Positions 17,254 to 47,420 of a stretch of 64,000 bases of DNA are shown here, piece after piece. The notes below the pieces were generated by a model. It searched no databases, was not told the origin of the DNA, and saw only the letters and a program-made list of their open reading frames with translations. The stretch is from Candidatus Multivoradales bacterium. GTDB taxonomy: Bacteria; Acidobacteriota; Thermoanaerobaculia; Multivoradales; JAHEKO01. The position numbers were made by a program, and so were the translations under genes. The stretch spans positions 832,001-896,000 of the forward strand of contig CBDCVR010000015.1 in the NCBI GenBank assembly GCA_965223155.1, given 5' to 3'. The first letter of the stretch is position 1, and the number at the start of each line of letters is the position of its first letter.

Positions 17254-19890
17254 CTACCCGGCCACCGGAGCGGCCGGTTCGGCATCGGCGGCCGGAGATG
17301 GGGCGGCACCAGGGCCGGGGTCCAGGGGAACGCTTACGACAAACGCAGCGCCCCCGAGTTCGGAGCGTCCCTCGACGGTGACTTCGCCGCCATGGGCCTT
17401 GACCAGATTGCGAACCGTGGCCAACCCCAAACCGGTACCCTTCTTCTTGCCCGTCGAAAACGGATCAAAAAGTGACCCGAGCCGTTCTTCCTCGATGCCC
17501 GCGCCGTTGTCGGCGACTCGAACCCGCAAGAAGGTCTCATCGCTACCCAACTCGACGACGATCAGACGCTCCTGCTTGCCGGACACGGCATCCTGAGCGT
17601 TCGAGACGAGGTTCTCGAGAACCCGAGTGAAACGGTCGGGGTCGAGCTCGACCTCCACAGCGGACTCCAGACGATCCTCGACGACCAACTCCACGCCGTG
17701 ACGCGCCACATTCGTCCGCAACGGCGCCAGGACACCGACGAGATAGGTCGAAGCCGGCAGCACGGCCTTCTTGAGCTCGGTGCCTGCTCCGCGGGCGAAC
17801 TCCAGGATCTCGGTCGCCATCGTCTCCAACCTGGTGGCAGCGGCTCGAACCTGATCGATGTCTTCGACCAAGTCTTCCTTCGGCCCACCGCCCACGGCGA
17901 CCGCACGCGCCAGGTCGGAATAGCCTTTGATGAGCATCAGGGCGTTGCGAAGATCATGCACCACCGTGCTCGTCAAGCTGCCGATGGCGGCGAGTCTCGT
18001 CTCACGCTCTCCCAACCGCCGCTCCGTCCGACGTGCCCGGATCTGCGCGCCGATGCGCGCTTCCAGCTCCTCCATCGAGAACGGCTTCGTGACGTAGTCA
18101 TCGGCCCCGGTGTCGAGACCTTCGACCGCGGCCTCGGAGCCGGCCTTCGCGGTTACCAGGATAATCGGCGTTCCCTTGAGCATGGGCTCGGTGCGAAGCC
18201 TCCGGCACAGCTCGTATCCGTTCATCTTGGGCATCATGATGTCGGAGAGGACAAGATCGGGCCGAATCGCCAAGGCCTTCTTGAGACCTTCGACCCCGTC
18301 GATAGCGGTCTCGACCTTGTAGTGCCGCGACAGTTGTCCGACCAGGTACGAGCGTAGATCCGAGTTGTCCTCGACGACCAGCACCGTGGCATCCCGGTCG
18401 AGTCGTTCGGGAGGACCTGTCCCATCGCCTCCCATCCCAGCCGCGTCGCCGCCGCGCACGTCGGCCAGCAACGTGTCCCGCTGAGAGCGACGACCAAACT
18501 CTCGATTGGCAAGAACCTCTGCCCGCGCTCGGAGGACCTTGTCTTCTCGTCTTCGCGGAGCCTGCCGGCGCTCTTCCGGCGTCAGAGCCTCCCTCGGCAG
18601 GGTCACGCGAAATGTCGACCCTTGACCCGCGACGCTCTCGACCTCGACGTCTCCGCCCTGCAATCGCGCCAACTCGCGAGCCAGGGCCAGACCGAGCCCG
18701 GTGCCTTCCTCGCTTCGCGTGAGGCTGCTGTCGACTTGGTGAAACCGATCGAAGATGGCTTCTTCCTGTCCGGGGGGAATGCCCGGTCCCGAGTCCGAGA
18801 CCTCGAACACCATGGCGCTGTCGTCGGCCCGCGCCCTCACCACGATGCGTCCGCCGTCCGGGGTGAACTTCAAGGCGTTGGAAAGAAGATTGGCGGCGAT
18901 CATCTCGACCTTGGCGCTGTCGAAGGCAAAGACCGGCAGATCGTTCAGTCCTTCGGTGGTGAGCTCGATTCCCTTGCGTCCGGCGTGCGGCAGGCTGGCC
19001 TGAACCAACTCGGTGAGGAGGGCGGCAAGATCGCCCGGCCGAACGTCGAGCTGCATCTGACCCGCCTCGAGCTTGGCGGTGTCCAGCAGGAGATTGACGT
19101 GCCTCAGGAGACGGCGGCTGTTCGCCAGCGCGGCCCGCAGGAGAGTTCTCTTCTCCGGATTCCGCTCGTCCCGAAGCATGGTCTCGACCGGACTGACCAT
19201 CAGCGTCAGCGGCGTACGCAGCTCGTGGCTGACGTTCGCGAAGAAGCGGGTCTTTGCCTCATCGAGCTTCTTGAGCTCGTCGTTGGCCTGCTCTAACCGC
19301 AAACGAAGGGACAGATCGCGGCGACGGCTTCGATCTCCGGCTTCGACCGCGAGACAGGTAAAGACACAGGTGCTCACCACATAGAAGAACGCTGGAACGG
19401 CCGCGGCATTGAGACCTGCAAGGTATGCGTTGGCGAGTAAGTAGGTGACCGCAACAGCGAAGCAAAACAGCACCGCCGTCGGCAGCCTCCAGGGCATGAA
19501 CAGGCCGACAAAGAAGAGAACCAGTAAGATCCCGAAGTAATAGTGGCTCTCGAAACCACCGACCCTCGGAGTCATAATTGCGATGCCCGAGGCTGCCACG
19601 TAGAGCATCAGGACTGAAATTGGCCCCAGAAAGGGCTGAGCCTTCTCGGCATACGAGAGGCCGATCGTTATCGCTGCGAGCAAGACGACAACCAGGCGAA
19701 CAGCGATCAAGAAACCAAGTTCGGAACTCGAGCTGTAGTAGTCCAGGATGCTGAATCCTGCATACAGCACGATCCCCACGCCCAGGCCCCGACGGAGCCA
19801 TTGGACCAACAGCTCATGCACTTCTGCGGCCAGGACGGACTCAAAGCGCGCCACATCAGAGGTCGCCCTGTCGGGCTTTTCGCTGAACAC
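17254..19890 (-). CDS. Membrane hybrid histidine kinase TM-HisKA-HATPase-REC-HisKA-HATPase (PhcS+PhcR-like architecture)
   Basis: About 6 TM; H-box SHELRTPL with ATPase; REC (VEDN, SDIMMP, KP); second H-box VHDLRNAL with second ATPase (DNGAGI, GTGLGL). Confidence 0.9.
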   Translation of the reverse strand: MFSEKPDRATSDVARFESVLAAEVHELLVQWLRRGLGVGIVLYAGFSILDYYSSSSELGFLIAVRLVVVLLAAITIGLSYAEKAQPFLGPISVLMLYVAASGIAIMTPRVGGFESHYYFGILLVLFFVGLFMPWRLPTAVLFCFAVAVTYLLANAYLAGLNAAAVPAFFYVVSTCVFTCLAVEAGDRSRRRDLSLRLRLEQANDELKKLDEAKTRFFANVSHELRTPLTLMVSPVETMLRDERNPEKRTLLRAALANSRRLLRHVNLLLDTAKLEAGQMQLDVRPGDLAALLTELVQASLPHAGRKGIELTTEGLNDLPVFAFDSAKVEMIAANLLSNALKFTPDGGRIVVRARADDSAMVFEVSDSGPGIPPGQEEAIFDRFHQVDSSLTRSEEGTGLGLALARELARLQGGDVEVESVAGQGSTFRVTLPREALTPEERRQAPRRREDKVLRARAEVLANREFGRRSQRDTLLADVRGGDAAGMGGDGTGPPERLDRDATVLVVEDNSDLRSYLVGQLSRHYKVETAIDGVEGLKKALAIRPDLVLSDIMMPKMNGYELCRRLRTEPMLKGTPIILVTAKAGSEAAVEGLDTGADDYVTKPFSMEELEARIGAQIRARRTERRLGERETRLAAIGSLTSTVVHDLRNALMLIKGYSDLARAVAVGGGPKEDLVEDIDQVRAAATRLETMATEILEFARGAGTELKKAVLPASTYLVGVLAPLRTNVARHGVELVVEDRLESAVEVELDPDRFTRVLENLVSNAQDAVSGKQERLIVVELGSDETFLRVRVADNGAGIEEERLGSLFDPFSTGKKKGTGLGLATVRNLVKAHGGEVTVEGRSELGGAAFVVSVPLDPGPGAAPSPAADAEPAAPVAG

Positions 19891-19981
19891 CAGCCAAAGC
19901 CTACCTCAAGAAATATCAAGTGCCGAGCGTCTTTAGCGGTACACTAGATCAGCGATCCCGCAAAGCTTCTCTGGAGCTGGT

Positions 19982-21493
19982 TTGAAATCGAACCGACCAT
20001 CGAATGCACCCTCAGGCGCAATACACGCGGACCTGTTGGGAGGCGACGAGATTCTTCAATACCGACCTCGCCGGCTCCGTACGTCCGAGCTCAATTACGA
20101 CCTTTCTTGCCAAGGACTCTTGGACCAGGCCGCGTTTGGCCCCTTCCCAGTCGTCGATATCTCGACCACGGGCCTCGCGCTACAGGGAGGTGACAGCTCA
20201 GTTCTGCCCCCGGGGTCTGAGATCTCGTCGCTTCAGCTGCTACACGGAGAATCGATCATCTGGGAAGGACTCGGTGTCTGCGTGTATCAGGTCCAGGACC
20301 CTTCGCCCCGCGTCGGCCTACGCTTCACGTCCGGACTTCTCGACCTGCACCTAATCAAGGTCGCTGATTCAATCGAAACTCGCTTGGAAGCGCTCCTGAC
20401 GGAGCGCCAGGAGACCAGCTCAGCTCTTCCCGCTGCTTGGCGAGTAGCCGTTTCCGATCTTCGCGGACTCCTTGAAGACGTGCAACAGGTACTCGAGGTA
20501 GCCGACGAGAGCTTCGACTACGATTCATCCAGCTTTGTCGAAGACCGAAAGGCCCTTTTCGAACGAGTCTTCGAGAAATGGGCCCCGGCGTTCTACGGGC
20601 AACAGGAATTACTCTTTCGACTGTCCGAGGAGCTCGAGGAAAAAACCCGCGAGCGAGCTCAGGCTTTCGCTTCTCGCGAGATCATGCCCCTCGTCTACTT
20701 GAGCCCCATGTACCGGCGGGCTTTCGACAAGCCCCTTGGTTACGCCGGCGACTACCGACTGATCGAAATGTACTTCGAGGATCTGTACTCCGGAAAGACA
20801 CTCTTCGCTCAGTTCCTCCAATTGCTGGCGCAGCGTTACCCGCTTGGGAAGACGGTTCGAGACCGCGAATCCTTGATGCGTAGCAAGGTCTCCCGAACGA
20901 TCAGGCGCCGCGACAACCCGCGAATCGTCGCCCTTGCCTGCGGACCCGCCCTAGAACTAAAGAACGTCATCCTCGAACTCGCCTCCGGCGAACACTCGTG
21001 CGAGTTCGTTTTCGTAGATCAAGACGAACAGGCGATGAACTTCGCCCACAGTTCTCTGAGTAGGTCGCTTATGGGCGTCGGGCAGGCGGCTCAGCTGGCG
21101 TACCGCCTCAACGGGCTTCATATTTCCGTCAAACAGATCCTGAAACCGGCGGATGATGGAGAAGCGGAGTTCGTTCGTTCGGCACTTGGGGAAGCGGACT
21201 TGATCTACGCCGCCGGGCTGTACGACTACTTGCCTCAACCGGTAGCGACCGCCCTTACACAAAGGCTCTATGGCCTCTTGGCGCCTGGTGGAGAGCTGTT
21301 CGTTGGCAACCTGAAGCGCTGCCCCGTCTCCACCTGGATCATGGAATACGTCCTCGCCTGGCACCTTCAGTACCGGACGGAGTCGGACATGGAAGCGCTG
21401 GCCCTTGCGTTGCGGCCCACCCCCTCTACCTACCGTCTTTCGGTCGATGCTATGGACCGCTGCGTTTTCCTTGAAGTCCATCGGCCCGAGTAG
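19982..21493 (+). CDS. PhcB-like class I SAM-dependent methyltransferase with N-terminal PilZ-like region
   Basis: KPLGYAGDY, ALACGP, VDQD, IYAAGLYDYL, LAPGGELFVGN; N-terminal RPRRLR...DISTTG...VGLRF. Confidence 0.72.
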   Translation: MKSNRPSNAPSGAIHADLLGGDEILQYRPRRLRTSELNYDLSCQGLLDQAAFGPFPVVDISTTGLALQGGDSSVLPPGSEISSLQLLHGESIIWEGLGVCVYQVQDPSPRVGLRFTSGLLDLHLIKVADSIETRLEALLTERQETSSALPAAWRVAVSDLRGLLEDVQQVLEVADESFDYDSSSFVEDRKALFERVFEKWAPAFYGQQELLFRLSEELEEKTRERAQAFASREIMPLVYLSPMYRRAFDKPLGYAGDYRLIEMYFEDLYSGKTLFAQFLQLLAQRYPLGKTVRDRESLMRSKVSRTIRRRDNPRIVALACGPALELKNVILELASGEHSCEFVFVDQDEQAMNFAHSSLSRSLMGVGQAAQLAYRLNGLHISVKQILKPADDGEAEFVRSALGEADLIYAAGLYDYLPQPVATALTQRLYGLLAPGGELFVGNLKRCPVSTWIMEYVLAWHLQYRTESDMEALALALRPTPSTYRLSVDAMDRCVFLEVHRPE

Positions 21494-21508
21494 CTTGAGC
21501 GTCGCGGA

Positions 21509-22423
21509 ATGACCAAGTCCCCAACCACGCGCCTGCCGGGATGGGCCTATCGGCGAGAGCGTCGTGTGACCCTCGTCGCCGTTGTGCTGCCGTTCTTGGG
21601 CTTCGTCGGCGGAACCCTCGCCTTTTGGAAGCGCGGGCTGGATCTCTCGGACCTGGTGCTCTTTGGAGTCTTCTACGTGCTCACCGCCCTCGGAGTCACG
21701 ATCGGTTTCCACCGTCTCTTTTCGCACCGCAGCTTCAAGACCGCCCGCCCGATTCGGGTCGTTCTCGCGGTCTTCGGATCCATGGCCGTTCAGGGACCGA
21801 TTATTCGCTGGGTTGCCGATCATCGCCGCCATCATCAATTCAGCGACCACGAAGGCGACCCGCATTCGCCCCACTTGCAAGAAGGCACCGGCTATCTGAC
21901 GATGCTCCGCAATCTCTGGTACGCCCACGTCGGCTGGCTCTTCGACCGGGACAAGACCTCCATCCGGATCTACGCCGCTGACCTCCTTCACGATGGGCTC
22001 GTACGGTCCGTCGACCGGCACTACGCGGCCTGGCTGGTCCTCAGCCTCGCCGCTCCGGCGCTGGCGGGGTGGGCCTTGACCTCGAGTCTGACGGGCGCGC
22101 TTTCGGCGTTCCTGTTTGCCGGACTCGCTCGTATCTTTGTCCTGCAACACGTGACCTGGAGTGTGAACTCCATCTGCCACTACTTCGGCAGCCAGCCCTT
22201 CGCCACCGAGGACGAGAGCCGGAACAACTGGGTCATGGCTTTGCTTGCGCTGGGTGAGGGATGGCACAACAATCATCACGCCTTCCCCGGTTCGGCTCGG
22301 CAGGGGCTCAGATGGTGGCAGTTCGATCCCAGCTATCTCGTGATCGTGCTCCTCGAGAAGCTGGGTCTGGCCGAGCGCGTGAAGACGGTCTCGCCGGCCG
22401 CCATGACTCGTAAGGCCCGCTAG
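21509..22423 (+). CDS. Acyl-CoA (delta-9 type) fatty acid desaturase
   Basis: His boxes [20 protein letters not shown]. Confidence 0.93.
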
Positions 22424-22604
22424 GCCCGTACCGGTACCCGCCCGGATTTCCCTCCGACGCGGTACCGCAAGCCTCCGACTTGCGAAACAATCGGGGCGCC
22501 ATGGTCCTGCGCCCCACGAAGCAAACGATCGTCGCGGCCCCATCCCGGCCCGCCAAGCTCGACGTGCGGCTCGGCCGCTTTTCGCCGCAAGGTCGGTCCC
22601 TGAC

Positions 22605-23504
22605 ATGAAGATAGGCGTATTGTCGCTGAGGTCTTCGCTCTATTCGACCCGGCGGCTGGTCACCGCCGCGCGCGAGCGCGGCCACGACGCGTCGGTCATC
22701 AACTATCTGCGCTGCTACATGGACATCACTTCGCGCAGGCCCTCGGTCCTGTACGCCGGCCACCGCCTCAAGTTCGACGCAATCATCCCTCGGATCGGAG
22801 CAACCTACACGTTCTATGGAACCGCCGTGGTCCGCCAGTTCGAGATGATGAACGTTCTGGCCGCGAACGACTCGATGGCGATCAGCCGATCCCGTGACAA
22901 GTTGCGCTCGCTCCAGCTCTTGGCGCGTGAGGGTCTCGGGCTGCCGGTGACGAGCTTTGCCCATTCCACCAAGGACATAGACGGGTTGATCGAGATCGTC
23001 GGCGGCACCCCGCTGCTAGTCAAGCTTCTGGAGGGAACCCAAGGAGTCGGGGTCGTCTTGGCCGAGACCAAGAGCGCCGCCCGTTCCGTAATGGAGGCTT
23101 TTCGCCAGCTCGACGCCAATATCCTGGTCCAGCAGTTCATCAAGGAGGCCAAGGGCGCCGACATCCGGGCTTTCGTCGTCGGCGGCAAGGTGATCGCCGC
23201 GATGAAGCGCCAGGCGCCTCCGGGGGAGTTTCGGTCCAACCTCCATCGCGGCGGAACCGCCGTCAAGATCAAACTCAGTGAAGAGGAGCGACGCACCGCG
23301 GTCAAGGCCGCGGCCACCCTCGGATTGAACGTCGCCGGCGTCGACATGCTGCAATCCGGGCACGGGCCGGTGGTCATCGAGGTCAACTCCTCTCCGGGGC
23401 TCGAAGGCATCGAGGCGGCCAGCGGCAAAGACGTGGCCGGGGCCATCATCCAGTTCTTGGAACGGCAGCACCGCCGGGGACGACGACGTGGCGTCCGAGC
23501 CTAA
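22605..23504 (+). CDS. rimK: RimK family alpha-L-glutamate ligase (ATP-grasp)
   Basis: [51 protein letters not shown]. Confidence 0.93.
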
Positions 23505-24453
23505 GCCCTTCAAGATCGGAGGCCACAAGGTCTCCCCAGGCAAGCGCAAGCGCCTGTCCCTCGATCTCGCTCGCCTGCCCACGGGAGACTGGCTCTCTCT
23601 CCACGTCGTGGTGCTCCACGGCGCCTTGCCCGGTCCGGCACTGTGGATGGACGCCGCCGTCCATGGCGACGAGCTAAACGGCCTCGAGATCATTCATCGA
23701 GTCTTGGACGCGCTCGACCCGAAGACGCTCTCCGGCACGGTTGTCGCGGTCCCGATCGTCAACGTCTTCGGCTTCGTCCAGCAGACACGCTACCTACCCG
23801 ACCGGAGAGACCTGAATCGCAGCTTTCCGGGTTCCTCGCGCGGTTCTCTGGCGTCACGAATCGCGCATCTCTTCATGCGCGAGATCGTCTCGCGGTGCGA
23901 CTACGGTCTCGACTTTCACACCGGCTCGAACCACCGCACCAACCTGCCCCAGGTTCGCGCCGACATCTCCGACCCGGAGACCCGCAGGCTGGCCCTGGCC
24001 TTTGGCGCCCCCCTTATGTACCGTGCCAAGCGCATCAAGGGCTCGCTACGCTCCGCGGCTGGCAAGGCTGGGGTCAAGATCTTGGTCTACGAAGCCGGAG
24101 AGCCGCTCCGTTTCGAGGAGAATGCCATCGAGCTCGGCGTCCAGGGGACGCTCCGCGTCCTGGAGATGGTCGGCATCGCCAAGACCCGTACGCCGGGCGA
24201 GGCTGCATCTTTCGAGGCGAAGTCCACGCGCTGGGTCCGCGCGCCCCGCAGCGGCATCCTGCACCTGTCGGCCGATCTCGGAAAACCCGTCCGCAAGGGC
24301 GAGCTGCTGGGGGTCATCTCGGATCCCCTGGGGAGCCGGAAACGCAAGTTCCGCGCCCCGGCCACGGGGATCGTCATGGGCTACACCAACAATCCCCTGG
24401 TCCATCGCGGCGATGCCGTGGTCCACATTGCCACGGCTCCGGACGACGTCTAG
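23488..24453 (+). CDS. Succinylglutamate desuccinylase/aspartoacylase family (M14-like) protein
   Basis: [25 protein letters not shown]; commonly paired with rimK. Confidence 0.88.
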
Positions 24454-24517: not shown

Positions 24518-25834
24518 CTAGAGCGAAGTTCCGGCCTCTCCCGCCAAGCTGGAAAGAGCGCTCTCGAAGCCGGCGATGAGCTCTCCGGGATCGGGAATCA
24601 GGCCTCTGTCGACCGCGAGACCCAAGCGCACCCTGCCGTCGTAACTCAGGATGCTCACTCCCAGGCCGAGCCGCCCGGATTGCGGCACCCAGAACATCAT
24701 GTCGTCGACGGCGCGGCCGCAGATCGCGAGCGGCCGTCTCGGACCGGGCACGTTCGTCATGACTGCCGTGGCATTCTTGCTGAGCAGGTTCACGACGCGC
24801 CGATGGAGCCCGGCGTGGGTCGAGCCCAGGGCCCTCAGCACGGCGTAGACGACGAAGGCCTCGGGCGAGCGCTTGAGTCGATCCATGCGCTCCTTGACCG
24901 CGCGCACGCGGGCGATTCGCTTCCCGACTCCCACCGGCAGCGACAGATAGACAAGACCGAACTGGTTGCCGAGCTCGGTATCGGACGGAGGCCGCAGGTT
25001 GACCGGAATGACCGCCCGTAAGTCCCGCACGGGGAGTCCCTGGGCGCGCTTCTCGAGGTACGAGCGCAGGGTCTCGGTGACTGCCGCGGTAAGCACGTCG
25101 TTGATGGTCGCCTCCAGTCTTCGGCCGATGTCTTTGACGGTCGCAAGCGGAATCTCGTTCGACCAGACCGCGAGCTTGTCCACGCCCAGCGGTCCCTTGA
25201 ACGCTGTTGCCGGGTCGGCTCGCATCGAGAGCAGCCGCGCCAGCGCGCCCGCGGCGTGGCCGCCCGCCTTGACCGCCGCGACGATTCTCCGGGCCGAGGG
25301 AATGCTCTCGTGATCGTCGCCTGCTTGGGCCAGCCCGACCTGGGCGATACCGTCTTCCGTCTCGGCGGGATCGGTCATGCCCAGGAGGACCTGCATCAGC
25401 GACATGCCGTCGCCGATGCAGTGGTGGATCCTGGCAACCAAGGCCGAACCGCCCCGGAAGTCCTCGACGTAGCGGAACCTCCAGAGCGGGCGGTCGAAGG
25501 CCAAGGGCGTCGACATCTCCGAACTCACCAGTGTCTGGAGCTCGGCTTTGCTGGTGCGATCCTCCAACCGGGTGTCTAGAACGTGCTTTGAAAGATCGAA
25601 GTCGGTCTCGATCCAGGCCGGCTTGCCCAGCTTGCCCGCCGGGTCGCGAACACACATCCGGAAACGCTCGTGCGGAAGCAGCGTGTCTTCGATCCGGCCC
25701 AGAAACTCGTCCCGCGGCAGCCGTTCGGCCAAAGTCATGACCGAAGTGATCGTCATGAGATTGGTTGCATCCTCCATGCGCAACCAAGCGCTGTCGGCCG
25801 CGGTTAGCGGGTTCGCTTCGAAACGATCGGTCAT
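24518..25834 (-). CDS. Wax ester synthase/diacylglycerol acyltransferase (WS/DGAT)
   Basis: HHCIGDG catalytic motif, RPLW, TINDVL, TNVPGP; start taken at ATG 25834. Confidence 0.92.
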   Translation of the reverse strand: MTDRFEANPLTAADSAWLRMEDATNLMTITSVMTLAERLPRDEFLGRIEDTLLPHERFRMCVRDPAGKLGKPAWIETDFDLSKHVLDTRLEDRTSKAELQTLVSSEMSTPLAFDRPLWRFRYVEDFRGGSALVARIHHCIGDGMSLMQVLLGMTDPAETEDGIAQVGLAQAGDDHESIPSARRIVAAVKAGGHAAGALARLLSMRADPATAFKGPLGVDKLAVWSNEIPLATVKDIGRRLEATINDVLTAAVTETLRSYLEKRAQGLPVRDLRAVIPVNLRPPSDTELGNQFGLVYLSLPVGVGKRIARVRAVKERMDRLKRSPEAFVVYAVLRALGSTHAGLHRRVVNLLSKNATAVMTNVPGPRRPLAICGRAVDDMMFWVPQSGRLGLGVSILSYDGRVRLGLAVDRGLIPDPGELIAGFESALSSLAGEAGTSL

Positions 25835-25856
25835 CGCAGCGTGCCGGAGGCGATGC

Positions 25857-26228
25857 CTATTCTTCTTCGTCGCCGGCGGCCGCAACGAGTCCCTCGCCGG
25901 CCTCGGAAAGCAGAGCTTCGGCCGCCTCCCGGCTGGAGGCTGGAACGCGTACGACGGCCGCTAGCAGCCGCGGATCGTCGTCGCCGCCCATCGCGCCCAG
26001 AGGATAGAGGCCTCCGAGGGTTTCGCCTCCCTGGACCAAGAAGCGAATTCCGGCGCCGCTCAGAACCGACTCGACCACGGGCAGGAGCGAAGCATCCGCG
26101 GTCCGCAGAACTTCGACGAAGCGCTCGCCGCGCTCCGGCTCCGGCTTCGTTGAGCTCAACGGTACCGAGCAGTCCGGACACATCCGAATCTCGTCTCGAA
26201 ACTCACCACCGCATGAGGGACAGTACAT
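25857..26228 (-). CDS. Zinc-ribbon plus DUF2007-like putative signal-transducing protein
   Basis: MYCPSC..E.R.....CPDC..L followed by SVLSGAGIRFLVQGG; start ATG 26228. Confidence 0.75.
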   Translation of the reverse strand: MYCPSCGGEFRDEIRMCPDCSVPLSSTKPEPERGERFVEVLRTADASLLPVVESVLSGAGIRFLVQGGETLGGLYPLGAMGGDDDPRLLAAVVRVPASSREAAEALLSEAGEGLVAAAGDEEE

Positions 26229-30749: not shown

Positions 30750-32543
30750 CTATGCGATCTTGAGGGCGACGATGGTGCGGTCGTCCGAGATCTCGACCCC
30801 GCGCGAGAACGCCCGCACACTCTCGAGGACGCCACGGGCCAGATCCTCCGCCGACACGCCCGCCAGGCGCTCGAGGGTGCCGTGGAGACGCTCCGATCCG
30901 AACTCCTGATCGCGGCCATTGAGGCTCTCGTCGACGCCGTCCGAAGCCAGGACGATCACGTCGCCGGCCTTCAGGTCAATCTCGTGCTGCCGGTAGCTGC
31001 GCTCGCCCAAGAGCCCCAGTGGCACGCCGCTCGCCTCGATCGGCGTCACCGCGCTTTTCCGCACGAGCAGCGGATAAGGCAGCCCGGAGTTAGCGATCGT
31101 CAGGCGGCGCCGATCTCGATCGTAGACCCCGAAGGCCAGGGCCACGAAACGGCTATCGAACCCCAGCCGGATGAGTTTGCGGTTCATCTCTTCCAAGACC
31201 TCGGCGGGAGGCAGGCACTTGCCAGTGGCAAACTCCCTCAGGGTTCCAACCGCCAGCGATCCAAGGAGAGCCGCCGAGGTGCCCTTGCCGGCAACGTCCC
31301 CGACGGCAAAGGCCAGCCTGCCCTCGCCGTACGGAAAGGAGTCGTAGAAATCTCCACCCAGATAGCGCGCGGGCTCGTAGGCAACGCCGATGTCGATGCC
31401 TTCGATGGCGAGCATGGTCTTGGGTAGGAGCTGTTTCTGTACCTCGCGAGCGGTCGACAGGTCCTGCTCGAGGCGCAGCTCATCCTGGCGAAGCTTCTCG
31501 TAGAGGCGGGCGTTCTCGAGCGCGATCGCGAGCGACGTCGCCAGCGTCGACAAGAGCTGCTGGTGCCGGTTGCTGAAAGCGTTGTAGCTCGCGCTCTCGA
31601 GATCAATGACCCCGATCATCCGGTCCTTGAAGACCAGCGGAACCACGAGCTCGGAGCGCACCCGGAGCTCGGTGTTACAGCGGGCGTATCTGGGGTCGAG
31701 ATCCACGTTGGGCACGCGGATGGGTTGGCGCAGCGCCGCGGCCGTGCCGCAGATGCCCTGGCCTAGGGCAACCGGCTCGAGCGAACGCACGGGCCGGCCG
31801 TCCTCGAAAACCGAAAAGAAGGGCTCCAGGTGCTGCTTCGTCTCCTCCCACAGGAAGATGGAGAAGACGTCGTAGTCGACGATTCGTCCCAGCCGGTCGG
31901 CGACTTTGCGCAAGAGCTCACGCCGGTTGAGGATCGCCGTCATCTCGCGGCTGATCTCGTGGAGCAAGGACAGCGAGCGCGCTTGCTCGCGCATGCGCTG
32001 TTGAATCCGGGCGCTCTCGATGGCGCTCGCAAGTTGGTCCGCCAGAAGCTCGAGAAGCTCAAGCGTGTCTCCAGCAAACGCACCCGCCTCTTGGGAGCCG
32101 ACGTCCAGGACTCCGATGACACGATCCTCCACGAACAGCGGGATCGCGACTTCGGAACGGACGTCCGCCGAGGCCGCGATGTATCGGGGCTCGGAGAGGA
32201 CATCGTCCACGACCAGGGTCCCCTTGCGCTCCGCCGCGCTGCCCACGATTCCCTGGCCTATGCCAAAGCGCCAGTGTTCGACGACTTCGCGCGAAAAGCC
32301 CTCGGCGAAGGCGAAGCGCAGCTCGCCGCCGAAATCGTCGAGGAGGAGCACCGCCAGGCTGGCGAAATCCACGATCCCGCGCAGCTGCTCGGCGACTCGA
32401 CCTAAGCCCTCGGCCAGGTCCGAACCGGCATTCAGGCTCTGAACCGAGCGCAAGAGACCGCGCAGAGCACGGTCGTGCGCCAGCCGGCTCTGGGCCGGCC
32501 GGATCCCGGAAGCTCCGGGCTTGGGTTGGGAAGTCTGGCTCAC
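30750..32543 (-). CDS. GAF-GAF-SpoIIE (PP2C, RsbU-like) phosphatase
   Basis: Two GAF domains; GGDFYD, GDVAGKG, SDGV, DDRTIV; start taken at GTG 32543 after GGAGG. Confidence 0.9.
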   Translation of the reverse strand: MSQTSQPKPGASGIRPAQSRLAHDRALRGLLRSVQSLNAGSDLAEGLGRVAEQLRGIVDFASLAVLLLDDFGGELRFAFAEGFSREVVEHWRFGIGQGIVGSAAERKGTLVVDDVLSEPRYIAASADVRSEVAIPLFVEDRVIGVLDVGSQEAGAFAGDTLELLELLADQLASAIESARIQQRMREQARSLSLLHEISREMTAILNRRELLRKVADRLGRIVDYDVFSIFLWEETKQHLEPFFSVFEDGRPVRSLEPVALGQGICGTAAALRQPIRVPNVDLDPRYARCNTELRVRSELVVPLVFKDRMIGVIDLESASYNAFSNRHQQLLSTLATSLAIALENARLYEKLRQDELRLEQDLSTAREVQKQLLPKTMLAIEGIDIGVAYEPARYLGGDFYDSFPYGEGRLAFAVGDVAGKGTSAALLGSLAVGTLREFATGKCLPPAEVLEEMNRKLIRLGFDSRFVALAFGVYDRDRRRLTIANSGLPYPLLVRKSAVTPIEASGVPLGLLGERSYRQHEIDLKAGDVIVLASDGVDESLNGRDQEFGSERLHGTLERLAGVSAEDLARGVLESVRAFSRGVEISDDRTIVALKIA

Positions 32544-32629
32544 GGAACCTCCTAGGCCTCCAACAGGGAATCTATCGACTTTCTTCCCAGGCTCCCAGGG
32601 GGATTTGACAGAATCATGCCTCTTCCGAG

Positions 32630-34150
32630 ATGGCCGTAGATTCGCAAAGCGCGCTCTTCGTTCTTGCCTGCCTCTTGTTCGAGCTGGGCATTGTCGCGAT
32701 CCCCATCTTCTACCTCTTTCGGATTCGGCGGCGGGTCGGCATCGGTCCGCTCCTGGTCCTGCTGGGCTCGAACCAGGTCCTGGCGGTCGTCCTGGCCTCG
32801 ACCGTCTACTTCGAGATCCAGCCAGGCCTCCTGGTCTCACCGGGCTCGGCGGTGCTCTTTACCGGTCTGATCGCCGCCGCCCTGCTGGTGTATCTGCGCG
32901 AAGACATTCCCAAGACGCGCAGCCTTCTCTTCGCTTTCGTGCTGGTCAACGCCTCGATCTTCGTTCTGCTCTGGTTGACCGGGTACCAAATGGTTGCCCT
33001 GCCGAGCCAGAACCTGCTCGAGGTTCCGATTGAACTCTTTGAGCTCAATCCCAGGGTGATGGCAGCCGGCACCTTGGCGCTGACTCTCGACGTGTTCCTG
33101 CTCGCGATCTTCTGGGAGGCGTTGCGCCGGTCGCTTCCCAACCTGCCGCGAGCTCTCCGGGTGCTCCTCGTCATTGTTGCCGTGCTTTGTGTCGATGCAG
33201 CCGTCTTCACCACGGTGGCGTTCTGGGGCAGCCCCAATCTCGACGCGCTTCTGGAGGGCCAGCTCGTCACCAAGGTCTTCTTTGGCGTCATCTGGGGCGG
33301 CCTTCTTTCAGCCTACCTCCGCTGGGTGGAGCCGATTGCGGTGCGTTCCATGCAGGAAACCGGCGAGCTCGCGGTCTTTTCGATCCTGACCTACAGGGAG
33401 CGCATCGAGCAGGTCCGGATGGAGCTCGAGGCCGAGCGCTCAGCCAATATCGCAAAGACTCGCTTCCTGGCCCATATGAGCCACGAGTTGCGCACGCCTC
33501 TCAATGCCATCTTAGGATTTACCAAGCTCCTTCAGTCGCCCTCGGCACCGGCCGCCGAGGACCAGAGGCGCCTTTACCTCGAACGGGTCTTCGACAACGG
33601 CCGCCACCTTCTCCATCTGATCAACGGCATCCTGGATCTGTCCAAGATCGAAGCCGGCAAGATCGATATCCATATCGAGCCGGTCGAGGTGGGCTCGCTG
33701 GTCGAGCGCACCATCGAAGAGCTGCGCAGCCAGGCCGCCGCCAAGGAACTCGCTCTCGAAACCCACATCCCGGCCGGAGCGGTCACGCTGGTCACCGACC
33801 CGGTGCGGCTCAAGCAGATCGTCATCAACCTGGTCGGCAACGCGATCAAGTTCACCCACACCGGAGGCGTTCGAATCCAGCTCGGCGAAAGCGCGCACCG
33901 CTGGCACCTCGAAGTCACCGATACCGGCATCGGCATTCCGGCCGACCAGATCGACCGGGTCTTCGAACCGTTCACTCAGGTCGAGGGAGGCCTCTCCCGC
34001 CGCCATCCCGGCACCGGCCTCGGACTGGCCATCACCAGAGCCTTGTGCGAGCAACTTGGGTTTGCCATCTCGATCGACAGCCGGGAAGGTAACGGTACGA
34101 GCATCCGCGTCGAGCTTCAGGATTTCCACGAAGGGCAGGTCGTCGCATGA
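32630..34150 (+). CDS. Sensor histidine kinase with YhhQ/Vut-like multi-TM input domain
   Basis: About 8 TM N-terminus; MSHELRTPLN, NLVGNAIKF, DTGIGI, GTGLGL. Confidence 0.88.
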   Translation: MAVDSQSALFVLACLLFELGIVAIPIFYLFRIRRRVGIGPLLVLLGSNQVLAVVLASTVYFEIQPGLLVSPGSAVLFTGLIAAALLVYLREDIPKTRSLLFAFVLVNASIFVLLWLTGYQMVALPSQNLLEVPIELFELNPRVMAAGTLALTLDVFLLAIFWEALRRSLPNLPRALRVLLVIVAVLCVDAAVFTTVAFWGSPNLDALLEGQLVTKVFFGVIWGGLLSAYLRWVEPIAVRSMQETGELAVFSILTYRERIEQVRMELEAERSANIAKTRFLAHMSHELRTPLNAILGFTKLLQSPSAPAAEDQRRLYLERVFDNGRHLLHLINGILDLSKIEAGKIDIHIEPVEVGSLVERTIEELRSQAAAKELALETHIPAGAVTLVTDPVRLKQIVINLVGNAIKFTHTGGVRIQLGESAHRWHLEVTDTGIGIPADQIDRVFEPFTQVEGGLSRRHPGTGLGLAITRALCEQLGFAISIDSREGNGTSIRVELQDFHEGQVVA

Positions 34151-36111
34151 GCCAAGAACGAGCATCTGAGCTCCCATCCGAGATGGCGCCGTCGCGCTAC
34201 ATCGAGAAGGTCCGTCTCGCGACCGGAGAGATCCTGGAGGACGCGATCGAACCGCGGCGGCTCTTGGTGCACACCCACCGGGACTACCACGTCGTCGATA
34301 TCCACGCTCGCTACATGATGAGCCGGGTGGTCAAGGCCACCGGCGACGAGAGCGCGGCCCGGCGCAAGATGAAGGAGATGCGCGCCCTCGGCCAGCGCAC
34401 CTCGCGGATGCTGGCCAAGATGATCGGCGAAGAGAATCCAGAACGCATCTCCAAGGCTCTTTTCGGCCTCAAGGATCGCGACTATTACTTCCGCTACCGC
34501 CGTCACCCTCTAACCGGCGACGAGATCGCGGCCAGGATTGGCGAGTTGCGCAGGCGGGCCGCCGGCCAGCTGGAACGGAACCGCGAGGACGGCCGTCTGG
34601 CGTTACGCGTGCTTCTCACTGGGGGCACCGGCTTCGTCGGTAAAGAAACTCTCTGGCAGGCGGCTTCCGACCCCGAGATCGCCGAGGTCGTGGTGGTCAT
34701 TCGTCCCAAGACCATCCGCGACCGCAAGACCGGCGAGGTACTCGACGTGCTCGATCCCGCCGACCGCGGCAGGCTGCTTCTCGAGGAGCTCTGGCTCGCC
34801 GACCATCCCGACCGCTCGAAGTTTCGCTTCATCGGCGGCGACGTCGAGGAGCCCAACCTGGGGATTGCCGAGGACGTGCTCGCGACGCTTCGAGCCACCC
34901 TGACCCACGTCATTCACTGCGCCGCTAGCGTCGCCTTCGACGACCCCTATGAGGCGTCCTTTCGCGCCAACGTCAACGGCACGGTCAACGCGCTCGAGTT
35001 CTCACTCGGGCTCCAGGAGGCCCCGGGCAGTCCCTTCGTCTCGCACCTGTCGGTCGAGACTTCGTACATCCACGGACGTCAGACCAAGGAGGTGGCGCGC
35101 GAGGACGAGGTCGTCTTCCCACGTAACTTCTACAACAACTACTACGAGCTCACCAAGGCGATGGCGTCGATCGAGACCGAGCGCTTCATGCTCGAACGCG
35201 GTCTGCGGGTAGCACAGGTCTGCCCGGCGATCGTCATCGGTGAGTCCCGAGCCGGCAACAATCGCGGTGACACCAAGGTCGTCAACGCCCCGGTCAACGT
35301 CTTCGGTCGAGCCCAGCAGGCGATTACAGGACGGTTCGGCGAAGGCAAAGCCGAGCCCCGATCCGATCGATCCGGCCGGCCCGGCCGATCCGGCGGCCGC
35401 GTGCGCTGGCGGGATCGCTCGAAGGCGGCGGCAATCGCTCGCCTGGCGTGCATCTTTCCCGGCGATCCTTCCGCCCAGATCAACTTGATCCCGGTCGACC
35501 GGGTCGCCGCGGGCATGCTGGCCGCGCTCAAACGCGCCGAAGCAGTTGGCGAGCGCGTACACCTCGCCAGCGACACCCGGATCACCTCCAAGCAGATTCA
35601 GACCATCGTCAAGGAAGAACTTGGCGTCGACGTGCGCTTGACCGAGCCGACGCTCCACCGCACCGTCACCCTGCCGCTCCTGACCAAGGTCCTGACCCGC
35701 CTAGGCCAAGGACGGACCGCCAACGCTCTCGAGAAGCTGGGCGGCATCTTTGGCGGCTACAGTGAGTGGGGGCAGCCCGTGCACCAGGTAGGAAAGGACG
35801 TCGAGGTCCTGGGCCTGCCGGCCGAGCGGCCCCAGGCAGAGCACGCTTTTCGCATGCTCTGTCGCCACAACAAGTGGGTCCAGAACTTCGGTCAGATCCG
35901 GGACCCCTTGGAGATCTCGCGCCGGGAGCGCATCTGGTGGAGCTTCATCCAGGATCTGGAGCAGCGCCATGGCAAGCCCGCGGGCGCCATCCCGAGCGAC
36001 GAGTTTCTGACTGAGCTCGAGAAGGCTCTAGACACGGAGGCCTTCGAGGCGCGCCCGCCGGGCTCCCGGGTACCCTCAAGTCCGGCTCACGAGGGTTCGG
36101 AGACGGCCTGA
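34147..36111 (+). CDS. Extended SDR / fatty acyl-CoA reductase-like (NAD_binding_4) protein with N-terminal extension
   Basis: TGGTGFVG, HCAASV, YELTK (YxxxK), PVDRVA; ATGA overlap with the kinase. Confidence 0.75.
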   Translation: MSQERASELPSEMAPSRYIEKVRLATGEILEDAIEPRRLLVHTHRDYHVVDIHARYMMSRVVKATGDESAARRKMKEMRALGQRTSRMLAKMIGEENPERISKALFGLKDRDYYFRYRRHPLTGDEIAARIGELRRRAAGQLERNREDGRLALRVLLTGGTGFVGKETLWQAASDPEIAEVVVVIRPKTIRDRKTGEVLDVLDPADRGRLLLEELWLADHPDRSKFRFIGGDVEEPNLGIAEDVLATLRATLTHVIHCAASVAFDDPYEASFRANVNGTVNALEFSLGLQEAPGSPFVSHLSVETSYIHGRQTKEVAREDEVVFPRNFYNNYYELTKAMASIETERFMLERGLRVAQVCPAIVIGESRAGNNRGDTKVVNAPVNVFGRAQQAITGRFGEGKAEPRSDRSGRPGRSGGRVRWRDRSKAAAIARLACIFPGDPSAQINLIPVDRVAAGMLAALKRAEAVGERVHLASDTRITSKQIQTIVKEELGVDVRLTEPTLHRTVTLPLLTKVLTRLGQGRTANALEKLGGIFGGYSEWGQPVHQVGKDVEVLGLPAERPQAEHAFRMLCRHNKWVQNFGQIRDPLEISRRERIWWSFIQDLEQRHGKPAGAIPSDEFLTELEKALDTEAFEARPPGSRVPSSPAHEGSETA

Positions 36112-37007
36112 GAAGGCCTCTTTGCAATCGCCTTGGTCATGACGATCGCACGGCCAGAGTCCTCGTGCCGAACGGTGTCCATGAACGCCGCGATTAGGTA
36201 AAGGCCGCGGCCGCTGGTCTTCAGCAGATTCTCCGGATCGGTCGGGTTGGGTATCGCGCTCGGGTCAAAGCCGCGGCCTTCGTCCCGGACCACGCATCGG
36301 AACTGGCCGGGGGTGAGCTCGATCTCCACGGTCACCCGCCGCCGGGCGAAGCCGGGCTGGCCCAGCCGTTTCTCCACCTGAGCCGAATACACCAGGGAGG
36401 ACTCCTCGCGAAGCTCCGAGCTGACTTCCAGATTGCCGTGGTGCATGGCGTTGCGAACCGCTTCCTGCACCGCGACGCCAACCTGCATGGCCGAGACTTC
36501 ATCCTCCGACAGCCGGCGCTCGACCAGAAGGCTCTGGACAAAGTGGACCAGCGGCGGAATCAAGATCTCTTCATTCGCCAAGCGAAACTCGAATCGCGAG
36601 CTCATGAGGTGCGACAGAAGACGGGCCCGCTCGCGGTGCTGGTTGGCCACCGCCAAGACGCTCTCGACCGTCGGAACGAGATCGCCCATGATGCGCCGCT
36701 TGGGCACGTAGCTGACGGCACCTTTCTTCAAAGCTCTCTGCGCCACCTCACCACTACCGAAGGCGGTTACCAGAATCACCGGCAGGTTCGGATGCTTCTC
36801 GCGGACCTTCTCGACCAGGACCATGCCGTTCATGCCGGGCATCACGAGGTCCGTGACGACCGCGTCTGGGCGCTTCGTATCGAGGAGCTCGAGAGCACTC
36901 TCGACACTGTCGGCAGCGCGGGTCTCCAGACCGGCCTTCTCCAGGAGCGCTCGGATGAGGAGCACCTGGTCGCCGCTGTCGTCAACAACCAGAACTTCGT
37001 TCGCCAT
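36087..37007 (-). CDS. Response regulator with C-terminal RsbW-like HATPase domain
   Basis: REC (VDD, TDLVMP, VPK); EAVRNAMHHGN, DEGRGFD, GRGLYLI; start ATG 37007. Confidence 0.87.
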   Translation of the reverse strand: MANEVLVVDDSGDQVLLIRALLEKAGLETRAADSVESALELLDTKRPDAVVTDLVMPGMNGMVLVEKVREKHPNLPVILVTAFGSGEVAQRALKKGAVSYVPKRRIMGDLVPTVESVLAVANQHRERARLLSHLMSSRFEFRLANEEILIPPLVHFVQSLLVERRLSEDEVSAMQVGVAVQEAVRNAMHHGNLEVSSELREESSLVYSAQVEKRLGQPGFARRRVTVEIELTPGQFRCVVRDEGRGFDPSAIPNPTDPENLLKTSGRGLYLIAAFMDTVRHEDSGRAIVMTKAIAKRPSQAVSEPS

Positions 37008-37047
37008 GCAATCGCTTTCTTGGGCCGGCAGTCTATACTTTTCGGGT

Positions 37048-38652
37048 TTGGGAGCCTTTCGCCGCCGCGCCGATTCGAACCCGCCAAGCTCCGCGTCGAT
37101 CCGCAGTCCGGAACCGGTCGTGGAAACCGCCCACGGCAGGCTCCGGGGCGTGGCGCTCGAGACCGGAGTGTTCCGCTTCTCCGGCATTCCTTTCGCGGCG
37201 CCGCCTGTCGGGGCCCTGCGCTTCGCCGACCCCCAGCCACCCGAGCCGTGGCCCGGCATCCGCCCCGCCGGTGAGGTCGGCCCGGCGGCGCCCCAGCTCG
37301 CGGTCGGCGCCATGGGGCCCATCGGACGCTTGTCACGCCTGGTTCGCGGCCCCATGGCCGAGGACTGCCTGACCCTCAATGTCTGGACGCCGGGCCTCGG
37401 CGGCGCTTCGCGGCCGGTCCTGGTCTGGTTCCATGGTGGCGCGTTTGTCTTGGGCGCGGGCTCGACGTTTCTCTACGATGCCGCCCATCTGGCGGCAAGC
37501 GGAGACGTCGTGGTGGTCTCGGTCAACTACCGTCTGGGGGCCCTCGGCTTCCTGGACCTCACGCGCCTCACCCGCAGGCGAGACGCACCCTCCAATCTGG
37601 GGCTGAAGGATCAGATCGCCGCTTTGCATTGGGTGCGGGACACGATCGCCGCCTTCGGAGGCGCCGCCGACCAGGTCACGGTCTTCGGAGAATCGGCCGG
37701 AGCGATGAGCGTGGGCACCCTGCTGGCGGCCGCACCCCATCTGTTTCGCCGCGCGATCCTCCAGAGCGGAGCCGCCGCCAACGTTTCGTCTCCCGCCGAG
37801 GCGGCCTACGTCGCGGCCCAGTTCCTGGACGCTCTGGAGGTCGATCCGGATCGGTTCGAAAGGCTGCGCGAGATCGACATCGAGACGATCTTGAAGGCTC
37901 AAAGATCGGTCTTGTTCGGAGAATGGCGCCGCATGGGCCGGCTGCCATGGCAGCCGAGCGTCGACGGCACGACGGTGCCGAACGCGCCGGTCGCAGACAT
38001 CGCCCGCGGGCGCGCCGGCAACATCGACATCCTCCTCGGCACCAACCTGGACGAGTGGAAGCTCTTTACCGCCGGCGCGGTCATGCTGCGGGGCATGAGC
38101 CATCGGGATCTGGAGACAAGGATCGCCTGGAGCCTCCGGCTCTGGGGCATCCGACACGCGCAGGCGGCCGAGGTTCGGAACTACTACCTAGACCTTGTCG
38201 CCCGGCGCAAGCGCCGGCCGACGCCCTACGAGGCCTGGGTGGCGTTTCGAAGCGACCAGTTCTTTCGGATGCCGGCCCGCGATCTCGCCAATCGCCAGAG
38301 CCGGCACACCGGCGCCGTGTTTCTGTACCGCTTCGATCAGCCGATACCCGCGTTTCGCCACTCACTGGGCGCTTGCCACGCAGCCGAGGTTCCCTTGGTC
38401 TTCGGCACCCATCGCACCGCCCTGCTCCGGCCGCTCTATCTCGGCAGCCGCCGCATCGACAGCCTCTCCCGGCTGATGCAATCCGCCTGGCTCTCCTTCG
38501 CCCGTACCGGGCGGCCCGAAGACGACGAGATCGGTCCTTGGCCCGAATTCGAGCCGGAGGGCGACTCCACCCGGGCGCTGGGCTCTCCAGAAACCGTACT
38601 CCGGGAGGTCGACGAGACCAGCCTCGACCTCTGGCTGCGGCCGGCCGGGTAG
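37048..38652 (+). CDS. Carboxylesterase type B (pNB esterase-like)
   Basis: EDCLTLNVWTP, HGGAF, FGESAG nucleophile, GACHAAE; start uncertain (TTG 37048 or GTG 37120). Confidence 0.9.
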   Translation: MGAFRRRADSNPPSSASIRSPEPVVETAHGRLRGVALETGVFRFSGIPFAAPPVGALRFADPQPPEPWPGIRPAGEVGPAAPQLAVGAMGPIGRLSRLVRGPMAEDCLTLNVWTPGLGGASRPVLVWFHGGAFVLGAGSTFLYDAAHLAASGDVVVVSVNYRLGALGFLDLTRLTRRRDAPSNLGLKDQIAALHWVRDTIAAFGGAADQVTVFGESAGAMSVGTLLAAAPHLFRRAILQSGAAANVSSPAEAAYVAAQFLDALEVDPDRFERLREIDIETILKAQRSVLFGEWRRMGRLPWQPSVDGTTVPNAPVADIARGRAGNIDILLGTNLDEWKLFTAGAVMLRGMSHRDLETRIAWSLRLWGIRHAQAAEVRNYYLDLVARRKRRPTPYEAWVAFRSDQFFRMPARDLANRQSRHTGAVFLYRFDQPIPAFRHSLGACHAAEVPLVFGTHRTALLRPLYLGSRRIDSLSRLMQSAWLSFARTGRPEDDEIGPWPEFEPEGDSTRALGSPETVLREVDETSLDLWLRPAG

Positions 38653-46143: not shown

Positions 46144-47025
46144 TTAGGCAGCGGAGGCGTGCCGGGCCGAGCGTCTGGCGGTGAACCTGGCGCTCCAGAT
46201 CCGTCCCTCGAGCCTGCGGGCCACGGCGCCGACCAGCCAGGCCAAACCCAGGCGACGGATCCATGCTTTCCACCATGCCGGTATCTCGGACAGGATCAAG
46301 TCGGCCATCTGAGCTCCCCCATAGACGAACCGATCCAGGACCTCGACCTCCTCGAGACCGGCGGCTTCAAGGCCCCGGCGATAGTCGTCCTCCCCAATCG
46401 CGCCGCCGACACAGGAGTTGTAGACCGCCGGGATGGCCCGCAGCCAGCCCGGCAGGTCCTCGACCACGATATCCGAGACCGACATGCGGCCACCCGGCCG
46501 CAGTACTCGGGCGATCTCGGAAAAGACGCGCGGTTTGTCGGGCGAGAGATTGATCACACAATTCGAGATCACCAGATCCACGGACGCATCCTCGACCGGC
46601 AGCTCTTCGATCAGCCCTTTGCGCACTTCCACGTTGCCGACCCCGGCCGAAGCAATGGCGCCTCGCGCGCGCTCGATCATGGCGTCGGTCATATCGACGC
46701 CAATGACCCGACCTTCCGGCCCCACCTTGCCCGCCGCCAGCAAGAGATCGATTCCCGCGCCCGAGCCGAGATCCAGCACCACCTCGCCTGGCCCGACGCC
46801 GGCAAGGGCGGTCGGGTTGCCGCAACCGAACGAGTTGATTCGCGCCTCCTCGGGCAATGACGCCAACTCTTCTTCAGTGTAGCCCGCCGTCCGGGCCGCG
46901 ACCCCTTTCGTTCGTGCGGGGCCACCGCCGCAGTCGCCGCCACCACCACAACAGCCGCTACCAGTGGTCACCGCCTCGGCGTAGGCCTTAGAGACGTTGT
47001 CGCGAATCTTGTCTTGATCGTTCAT
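46144..47025 (-). CDS. arsM: Arsenite S-adenosylmethyltransferase-like protein
   Basis: N-terminal CC, GCGNP, DLGSGAG, SNCVINL, CVGGA; downstream of ArsR. Confidence 0.8.
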   Translation of the reverse strand: MNDQDKIRDNVSKAYAEAVTTGSGCCGGGGDCGGGPARTKGVAARTAGYTEEELASLPEEARINSFGCGNPTALAGVGPGEVVLDLGSGAGIDLLLAAGKVGPEGRVIGVDMTDAMIERARGAIASAGVGNVEVRKGLIEELPVEDASVDLVISNCVINLSPDKPRVFSEIARVLRPGGRMSVSDIVVEDLPGWLRAIPAVYNSCVGGAIGEDDYRRGLEAAGLEEVEVLDRFVYGGAQMADLILSEIPAWWKAWIRRLGLAWLVGAVARRLEGRIWSARFTARRSARHASAA

Positions 47026-47420
47026 TGCGGTTCTCCTTGGATGGTTTCGGTGGCCGGGGCGGCGTCTTCGAGCCGCTTCCATTCACCGGCACCGGCGCAG
47101 CATTCCTCGATCGCCCCGGCCATGTCGCGGAGCGCTTTCGCGACCTCGTCGTAGCGCAACCGGTAGTAGACCTCGCGGCCGCGCTTTTCCGATTCCACGA
47201 TGCCGGCGTCCCGCAAGGTCGCTAGGTGCCGGGACACGACCGAGAGGTCGGTCGGGCAGCACTCCGAGAGCGACGAGACGGTCTGGGCGTCGCAGCAGGT
47301 AGCGAGTTGGGCCACCAGAGCGATGCGATTGCGGTCGCCCAGGGCACGGAAGAAGCCCGGGGCGAAACGGCTTTCGATGTCGGAACAGCACGGGGCGGAA
47401 CTATTGCTTGTTTGCGTCAT
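47022..47420 (-). CDS. arsR: ArsR/SmtB family transcriptional repressor
   Basis: FRALGD.NR, SVVSRHLATLRDAG, EKRGREVYY; several CC pairs. Confidence 0.87.
   Translation of the reverse strand: MTQTSNSSAPCCSDIESRFAPGFFRALGDRNRIALVAQLATCCDAQTVSSLSECCPTDLSVVSRHLATLRDAGIVESEKRGREVYYRLRYDEVAKALRDMAGAIEECCAGAGEWKRLEDAAPATETIQGEPQ

Follow-up and report, generated by a model that had tools for sequence, protein, structure and literature searches.

A divergent gene pair, encoding a methyltransferase and a membrane-bound hybrid histidine kinase, lies in a 64,000-nucleotide stretch of the genome of Candidatus Multivoradales bacterium (GenBank assembly GCA_965223155.1, contig CBDCVR010000015.1, positions 832,001 to 896,000; G+C ~66%), hereafter the window. 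The pair probably forms the two-gene core of a Phc-type synthase-receptor system, with the desaturase encoded directly after the methyltransferase standing outside the conserved system. A sequence-only reading of this DNA had proposed a cassette resembling the fatty-acid-ester quorum-sensing module of Ralstonia, in which the co-transcribed desaturase suggested a new unsaturated fatty acid methyl ester signal. The synthase-receptor part of this proposal is supported by homology and gene linkage, and the unsaturated methyl ester signal is left without comparative support. The gene layout was described accurately. Both methyltransferase motifs, KPLGYAGDY and AGLYDYL, were located, a gene matching the Pfam family FA_desaturase begins 15 bp after the methyltransferase stop codon, and the kinase, for which hydropathy and Pfam domains agree on a multi-pass membrane hybrid architecture, is divergent from the methyltransferase gene by 91 bp (Table 1).

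The methyltransferase could not be placed by Pfam and NCBIfam alone: Pfam gave only a sub-threshold match to Methyltransf_12 (21 bits, cutoff 30) and NCBIfam gave none. As a proxy for PhcB and PhcS, we used an operon on a Paraburkholderia graminis plasmid (locus L081), found by tblastn of plasmids, which encodes a methyltransferase of 468 amino acids (aa), a kinase of 445 aa, a receiver of 134 aa, and a receiver protein of 344 aa. Relatives of this kinase at 88% identity are named "sensor histidine kinase PhcS" by both NCBI and JGI, and those at 63-65% include a "repressor of PhcA" of Cupriavidus taiwanensis and a Ralstonia insidiosa protein. The relatives of the methyltransferase are 60-92% identical and occur in Paraburkholderia, Cupriavidus, Massilia, and others. 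The gene sizes fit those given for PhcB (464-468 aa) and PhcQ in the available text of PMC8578825. A gene of the cyclopropane-fatty-acyl-phospholipid synthase family (L081:4580-5602, + strand) is situated ~1 kb upstream of the phcB-like gene in this Paraburkholderia locus.

By BLASTP, the window methyltransferase is 28% identical to the P. graminis enzyme over 358 residues (E = 2e-34), and hhalign comparison of its family with 93 Burkholderiales relatives of that enzyme gave a probability of 100 and E = 5.6e-46 over 408 columns. The helical domain and the S-adenosylmethionine (SAM) domain are both aligned, and the KPLGYAGDY and AGL(Y/F)DYL columns are invariant. Among 21 closer relatives, the two motifs occupy invariant or nearly invariant columns, and they are kept in distant relatives as well. 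These alignments establish genuine, albeit distant, homology to the PhcB family, at the level of a paralogue: with 28% identity and a length of 503 aa, the window enzyme has neither the similarity (60-92%) nor the architecture of the Burkholderiales members. The family assignment, drawn from motifs in the sequence-only reading, is thereby supported. An exhaustive search among representative proteins yielded 3,795 relatives with E<=1e-3, 250 of them with E<=1e-30, and many of 85 relatives from a word-indexed search carry the name that JGI gives to the 3-hydroxypalmitic acid methyl ester biosynthesis protein. The full-length model is confident, with a pLDDT (predicted local distance difference test) score of 86.2. 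The best Foldseek match is PDB 3ocj (E = 1.3e-11), a Bordetella parapertussis protein of unknown function, and the small-molecule methyltransferases SgvM (SgvM-type matches at ~1e-9), Rv2258c, and NodS are among the best matches. The likeness to 3ocj and the SgvM-type enzymes is confined to the helical and methyltransferase parts, and sequence identity is low (14-18%).

The N-terminus of the methyltransferase is predicted to be a PilZ-fold domain. When residues 28-120 were modeled alone from 45 sequences (pLDDT 83.6), the top PDB matches in Foldseek were PilZ domains bound to cyclic di-GMP (c-di-GMP), namely 4xrn, 5y6f, 5kgo, 4rt1, and 4p00. The PilZ matches, which include YcgR, MrkH, Alg44, and BcsA, have E-values of 4.7e-4 to 1e-2 and template modeling (TM) scores of 0.5-0.62. 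PilZ-type motifs are present as R28-P-x-R31 and D59-x-S61-x-x-G64; alignments of the 21 relatives and of 45 sequences show no variation at R28, R31, and G64 and hardly any at D59 and S61. Of 124 full-length representatives within the top 150 matches, 90 carry the pattern RxxR...[D/N]xSxxG; none of 120 Burkholderiales PhcB-type proteins does. Pfam PilZ itself matches 4 of the 21 relatives at E<=1 (best 6.3e-4). The predicted fold and the [D/N]xSxxG motif are common to the PilZ c-di-GMP receptors YcgR, Alg44, BcsA, MrkH, and MapZ, whereas RPxR takes the place of their RxxxR and the fusion partner is a PhcB-like methyltransferase. No description of such a fusion was found in the literature, where subscription papers such as PilZ domain censuses may hold notes of it.

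The gene record is affected by this domain. The version in the protein collection (P0004; 403 aa, 100% identical, 80% coverage) begins ~100 residues later, a start that removes most of the conserved PilZ fold. Because the first 100 residues of the TTG-initiated form are conserved in 44 loci, and GGAG lies 5 nt before the TTG at 19982, the longer form is supported and the record of the gene is corrected here.

The hybrid kinase carries two HisKA/HATPase_c pairs and one Response_reg domain by Pfam, following ~200 hydrophobic residues in which a hydropathy scan finds 5-6 hydrophobic segments (residues 58-182). The BLASTP alignment with the PhcS-like kinase of Paraburkholderia spans residues 67-433 and takes in the membrane region (E = 6e-21). 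When the N-termini of 20 window-type kinases were compared with those of 117 PhcS proteins by hhalign, 186 columns were aligned with a probability of 99.3 and E = 2.4e-20; the E-values of the controls were 0.22 for a reversed profile, 0.19-0.72 for ten column shuffles, and 8e-7 to 4e-4 for block shuffles, which preserve local homology. With clean reversed and column-shuffled controls, these profiles identify the membrane sensor of the kinase as a homologue of the PhcS sensor. The simple architecture of PhcS (a sensor with HisKA and HATPase in ~445 aa, encoded in an operon after phcB) is absent, the window protein being an 878-aa hybrid encoded divergently. In the available text of PMC8578825, PhcR is described as a receiver with a histidine kinase domain and no DNA-binding domain. 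Residues 503-858 of the window kinase show the same order of domains; the comparison copy in L081 has the receiver only, and receiver comparisons with the L081 regulators gave generic similarity. In its domain layout, the kinase resembles a fusion of PhcS with a protein of the PhcR type.

The two genes are linked far beyond this genome. A genome scan confirmed 160 relatives, and linkage was counted in the best 80 loci, all from metagenome-assembled genomes (MAGs); the best locus is 45% identical, and neither the window's own genome nor Ralstonia is among them. These loci come from Acidobacteriota/Thermoanaerobaculia, whose MAGs hold the closest relatives, and from Myxococcota, Planctomycetota, Verrucomicrobiota, and a few other groups. 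A full-length window-type kinase (a match from query residue <=120 to >=830 within ~1.4 kb) adjoins the methyltransferase in 42 of the 80 loci, in 23 of them downstream in the same direction, in 13 convergently, and in 6 divergently as in the window. Linkage of methyltransferase and kinase is thus conserved in several phyla. Partial kinase matches, mostly cut by contig ends, were found in a further 9 loci, two of them >3.9 kb away.

In 15 of the remaining 29 loci, a serine/threonine (Ser/Thr) kinase gene directly adjoins the methyltransferase gene; it is complete in L006, L014, L016, L019, L021, L030, L032, L033, L036, L041, L045, L046, and L048 and truncated in L009 and L025. Ahead of the kinase domain, 2-5 hydrophobic segments are predicted in these proteins. 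The ~240-residue membrane N-terminus of the 13 complete proteins matches the profile of the window-type sensor over 176 columns (probability 97.1, E = 7.3e-11; controls E = 0.067 or worse). Direct comparison with the PhcS sensor is weak (E = 0.0019, probability 14), and the tie to PhcS holds only by way of the window-type sensor. In L061, the same membrane domain is fused ahead of a SpoIIE/PP2C phosphatase. A constant sensor beside the same enzyme, with its output swapped, is what a ligand-receptor pair predicts, and the constancy of sensor and enzyme while output and orientation vary is the strongest argument that the one makes what the other detects.

Other neighbors recur in these loci. Receiver-HATPase genes, with a layout like that of PhcR, flank the hybrid kinase in ~17 loci, and GGDEF/EAL genes adjoin the kinase-methyltransferase pair in L004, L008, and L038. 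A gene for a receiver-EAL phosphodiesterase (L008:4747-5901, - strand) is situated between the genes for the hybrid kinase and the PilZ-methyltransferase in L008, and this arrangement suggests a loop from receptor via c-di-GMP to synthase. In 8 loci, all of a more distant subfamily, the gene directly upstream of the methyltransferase encodes a FadL/TodX outer-membrane channel, suggesting that the product is hydrophobic and crosses the outer membrane.

With the Phc system, the window locus shares a homologous methyltransferase (helical and SAM domains, both motifs), a membrane sensor on a histidine kinase, adjacent genes, and a receiver-kinase unit that, as in PhcR, lacks a DNA-binding domain. 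The Phc-like gene order of methyltransferase, sensor kinase, and receiver-kinase gene is retained in the distant relatives L052-L080. The differences are substantial: PilZ-type motifs accompany an enzyme of 28% identity, PhcS-like and PhcR-like parts are combined in one protein of 878 residues that has an additional kinase core, the two genes are transcribed divergently and do not form an operon, and the lineage is another. No counterpart of PhcQ or PhcA was identified. In the available text of PMC8578825, PMC13320629, PMC12950752, and bioRxiv 10.1101/2021.11.05.467447, Phc signaling is described only for Ralstonia and its relatives. A literature search for PhcB homologues in Myxococcota or Acidobacteria found nothing relevant, and neither did one for the JGI protein name.

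Several observations weigh against a Phc-type pair. The identity to the PhcB family is just 28%, and the link to Phc passes through Paraburkholderia/Cupriavidus relatives and names given by the sources, not through PhcB, PhcS, and PhcR of Ralstonia solanacearum. Homology of the N-terminal domain with the N-terminus of PhcB is unsupported (profile E = 0.0028, probability 10.8). As for the PilZ fold, the canonical arginine motif is RxxxR, the spacing here is RxxR, and the Foldseek E-values are modest. Pfam MASE8 does not match the window kinase and is sub-threshold in 3 relatives; in the Pfam copy used, it is sub-threshold in the PhcS-like reference as well (17.6 bits), and the precomputed annotation of the collection assigns PF20968 (MASE8) to 120 of 120 listed PhcS relatives. 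The linkage counts cover only the best 80 of the 160 confirmed relatives, 13 of these 80 lack a window-type kinase although their sequence extends >=3 kb on both sides (most have the Ser/Thr kinase instead), and L047, L058, and L038 fit no simple scheme. Weak CheR matches (13 of the 21 relatives at E<=1, best E = 9.4e-5) leave room for a protein-methylating role.

The desaturase is a member of the FA_desaturase family (PF00487, 82.3 bits, cutoff 29.7). Its three His boxes, HRLFSH (68), HRRHH (105), and HNNHH (253), fit the pattern of Delta-9-type membrane acyl desaturases, to which it may belong; like these it matches Pfam above the cutoff, but its score for the NCBIfam DesA family (102.6 bits) is far below the cutoff of 400. 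Because the 15-bp gap holds no terminator-like site, it is probably transcribed together with the methyltransferase, and this gap is the sole support for a shared function. It would be rather surprising, although conceivable, if the desaturase were a working tailoring enzyme and the signal a new unsaturated fatty acid methyl ester. Lipid-modifying genes do touch the methyltransferase in L032, which has a divergent desaturase, and in L058, where a gene for an FA_hydroxylase-cytochrome P450 fusion (L058:5469-7502, + strand) overlaps the end of the PhcB-like methyltransferase and the usual sensor kinase is absent; these two loci hint at occasional recruitment of tailoring enzymes. However, L032 is the only one of the 80 loci with a desaturase beside the methyltransferase, its enzyme is 26% identical to that of the window, and tblastn with the window desaturase at E<=1e-10 found none in the 80 loci, a set without the contigs of the closest methyltransferase homologues (P0005-P0008, 57-60% identical). 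The co-occurrence expected of a cassette member is thus not conserved. In addition, a WS/DGAT (wax-ester synthase/acyltransferase) gene directly follows the methyltransferase in the syntenic loci L003, L005, and L010, whereas in the window it is reached only past a desaturase-RimK-AstE-like block (21509-24453). L003 preserves the order of the window with an ABC transporter (76% identical), Na/Ca exchanger (75%), kinase (60%), methyltransferase (45%), WS/DGAT (62%), and SSF transporter (60%). Because L003, L005, and L010 lack the block and synteny in L003 extends on both sides of it, the block is regarded as an insertion or deletion, and WS/DGAT is the conserved downstream neighbor in the closest syntenic relatives. 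Finally, the G+C content at third codon positions (GC3) of the desaturase (0.79) lies closer to that of the neighbors (0.81-0.85) than the GC3 of the methyltransferase does (0.69, the lowest of the region; kinase 0.76), and with WS/DGAT and a fatty-acyl-reductase-like gene nearby, the desaturase may equally belong with neutral-lipid genes.

Two further explanations were considered. The methyltransferase might modify a protein in the manner of CheR, perhaps the kinase, or a membrane lipid under c-di-GMP control, with the membrane domain of the kinase reading this local state. In addition to the CheR matches mentioned above, one plasmid homologue (H2) is annotated as CheR, and the fold matches include 5xly, in which a PilZ protein binds CheR1. 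The homology to the PhcB family is much stronger (E = 5.6e-46), the best structural matches are small-molecule methyltransferases, and the adjacent FadL-type channels suggest that a hydrophobic molecule passes through the outer membrane, so that we regard local methylation as unlikely, a little more so than the tailoring role of the desaturase. The multi-pass membrane kinase near a desaturase also recalls a DesK-like circuit, in which the kinase would sense membrane fluidity and control the desaturase, the methyltransferase being incidental. This was rejected as very improbable on the linkage counts, since the kinase accompanies the methyltransferase in 42 of the 80 loci and the desaturase does so in one. 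Moreover, the sensor is homologous to that of PhcS. DesK uses HisKA_3; the window kinase has Pfam HisKA, and HisKA_3 is not among the matches listed. A synthase-receptor pair of Phc type with the desaturase outside it thus remains the explanation that we favor.

The mechanism that we infer for this pair starts from what is shown above (two proteins with homologues in the Phc system, a predicted fold, and a conserved gene linkage) and adds a substrate, a product and its diffusibility, ligand binding, and a direction of control. The methyltransferase, with its PilZ-fold, helical, and SAM domains, would make a molecule that is small, hydrophobic, and methylated; given the homology to PhcB, this is most likely a methyl ester derived from a fatty acid. 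The divergent hybrid kinase would detect this product through its PhcS-like membrane domain and pass the signal on via its own receiver and second kinase core, a layout divided in Ralstonia between PhcS and PhcR. Through the PilZ-fold domain, c-di-GMP or a related ligand probably controls signal synthesis. The desaturase would have come with the three-gene insertion, probably sharing the transcript without being part of the conserved system.

Table 1. Positions of the genes, domains, motifs, and intergenic regions in the window.
Feature	Position	Strand	Details and basis
Hybrid kinase gene	17254-19890	-	878 aa open reading frame (ORF)
Kinase, second HisKA-like/HATPase core	17317..18033	-	Residues 620-858; Pfam; NCBIfam AtoS/ZraS-type match
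Kinase, receiver	18052..18384	-	Residues 503-613; Pfam Response_reg 95.6 bits
Kinase, first HisKA + HATPase_c core	18589..19257	-	Residues 212-434; Pfam
Kinase, multi-pass membrane sensor, PhcS-like (MASE8-like)	19276..19890	-	Residues 1-205; profile comparison, BLASTP
Divergent intergenic region, kinase/methyltransferase	19891-19981		91 bp
Methyltransferase gene	19982-21493	+	503 aa ORF, TTG start
Methyltransferase, predicted PilZ-fold beta-barrel	20063..20341	+	Residues 28-120; AlphaFold model, Foldseek, invariant columns
Methyltransferase, helical middle domain	20345..20908	+	Residues 122-309, holds KPLGYAGDY; model secondary structure; aligns with PhcB-family proteins
KPLGYAGDY motif	20729-20755	+	Residues 250-258
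Methyltransferase, class I SAM-methyltransferase fold	20909..21493	+	Residues 310-503, holds AGLYDYL; Pfam, model, Foldseek
AGLYDYL motif	21212-21232	+	Residues 411-417
Methyltransferase-desaturase gap	21494-21508		15 bp
Desaturase gene	21509-22423	+	304 aa ORF
WS/DGAT gene	24518..25885	-	Pfam; 62-66% identical genes in L003, L005, L010

A promoter scan found no consensus promoter in the divergent region, and terminator-like sites in the scan were no more frequent than in shuffled sequences. An antisense ORF (20957-22606) matches no family and is regarded as spurious. Between the window and the syntenic locus L003, the flanking genes share 60-76% identity and the methyltransferase only 45%, which suggests that this gene either was replaced or evolves more rapidly than those around it. 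In the same block as the desaturase, the genes for a RimK-type ATP-grasp ligase and an AstE/AspA-like deacylase (22605-24453) overlap by 17 bp. Further along the window are genes for a 654-aa protein with an NAD_binding_4 domain of the fatty-acyl-reductase type (34147-36111, + strand) and a carboxylesterase (36823-38652), which may form a wax-ester or neutral-lipid gene set with WS/DGAT. At 30750-34150, a GAF-GAF-SpoIIE phosphatase gene (- strand) overlaps head to head with a sensor kinase gene (+ strand) whose product has a membrane domain of the VUPS (vitamin-uptake-like sensor) type. At 46144-48333, an HTH_20 (ArsR-type) regulator gene adjoins that of a Methyltransf_31 enzyme, followed by a fragment of a DDE transposase (128 aa).

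Three features go beyond what had been read from the sequence before: an input domain with a PilZ fold, a kinase in which PhcS-like and PhcR-like layouts are fused, and a choice of outputs. Homologues of the synthase and the sensor of Phc signaling stay linked in at least four further phyla, with an added input of the second-messenger type and swappable outputs. A tentative joint reading, speculative as a whole, is that a widespread and undescribed branch of Phc-type lipid-ester systems exists in Acidobacteriota, Myxococcota, Planctomycetota, and Verrucomicrobiota. In this branch, a synthase gated by c-di-GMP through PilZ would be paired with a receptor with interchangeable outputs (hybrid histidine kinase, Ser/Thr kinase, or PP2C phosphatase), operons of receptor kinase and receiver-EAL protein like that of L008 would close a loop between an extracellular signal and a second messenger, and the desaturase may have been recruited in this genome to alter the signal. 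If the chemistry is true, these genes would represent a broad, mostly uncultured class of lipid-ester cell-to-cell signaling and a direct meeting point of c-di-GMP and quorum sensing.

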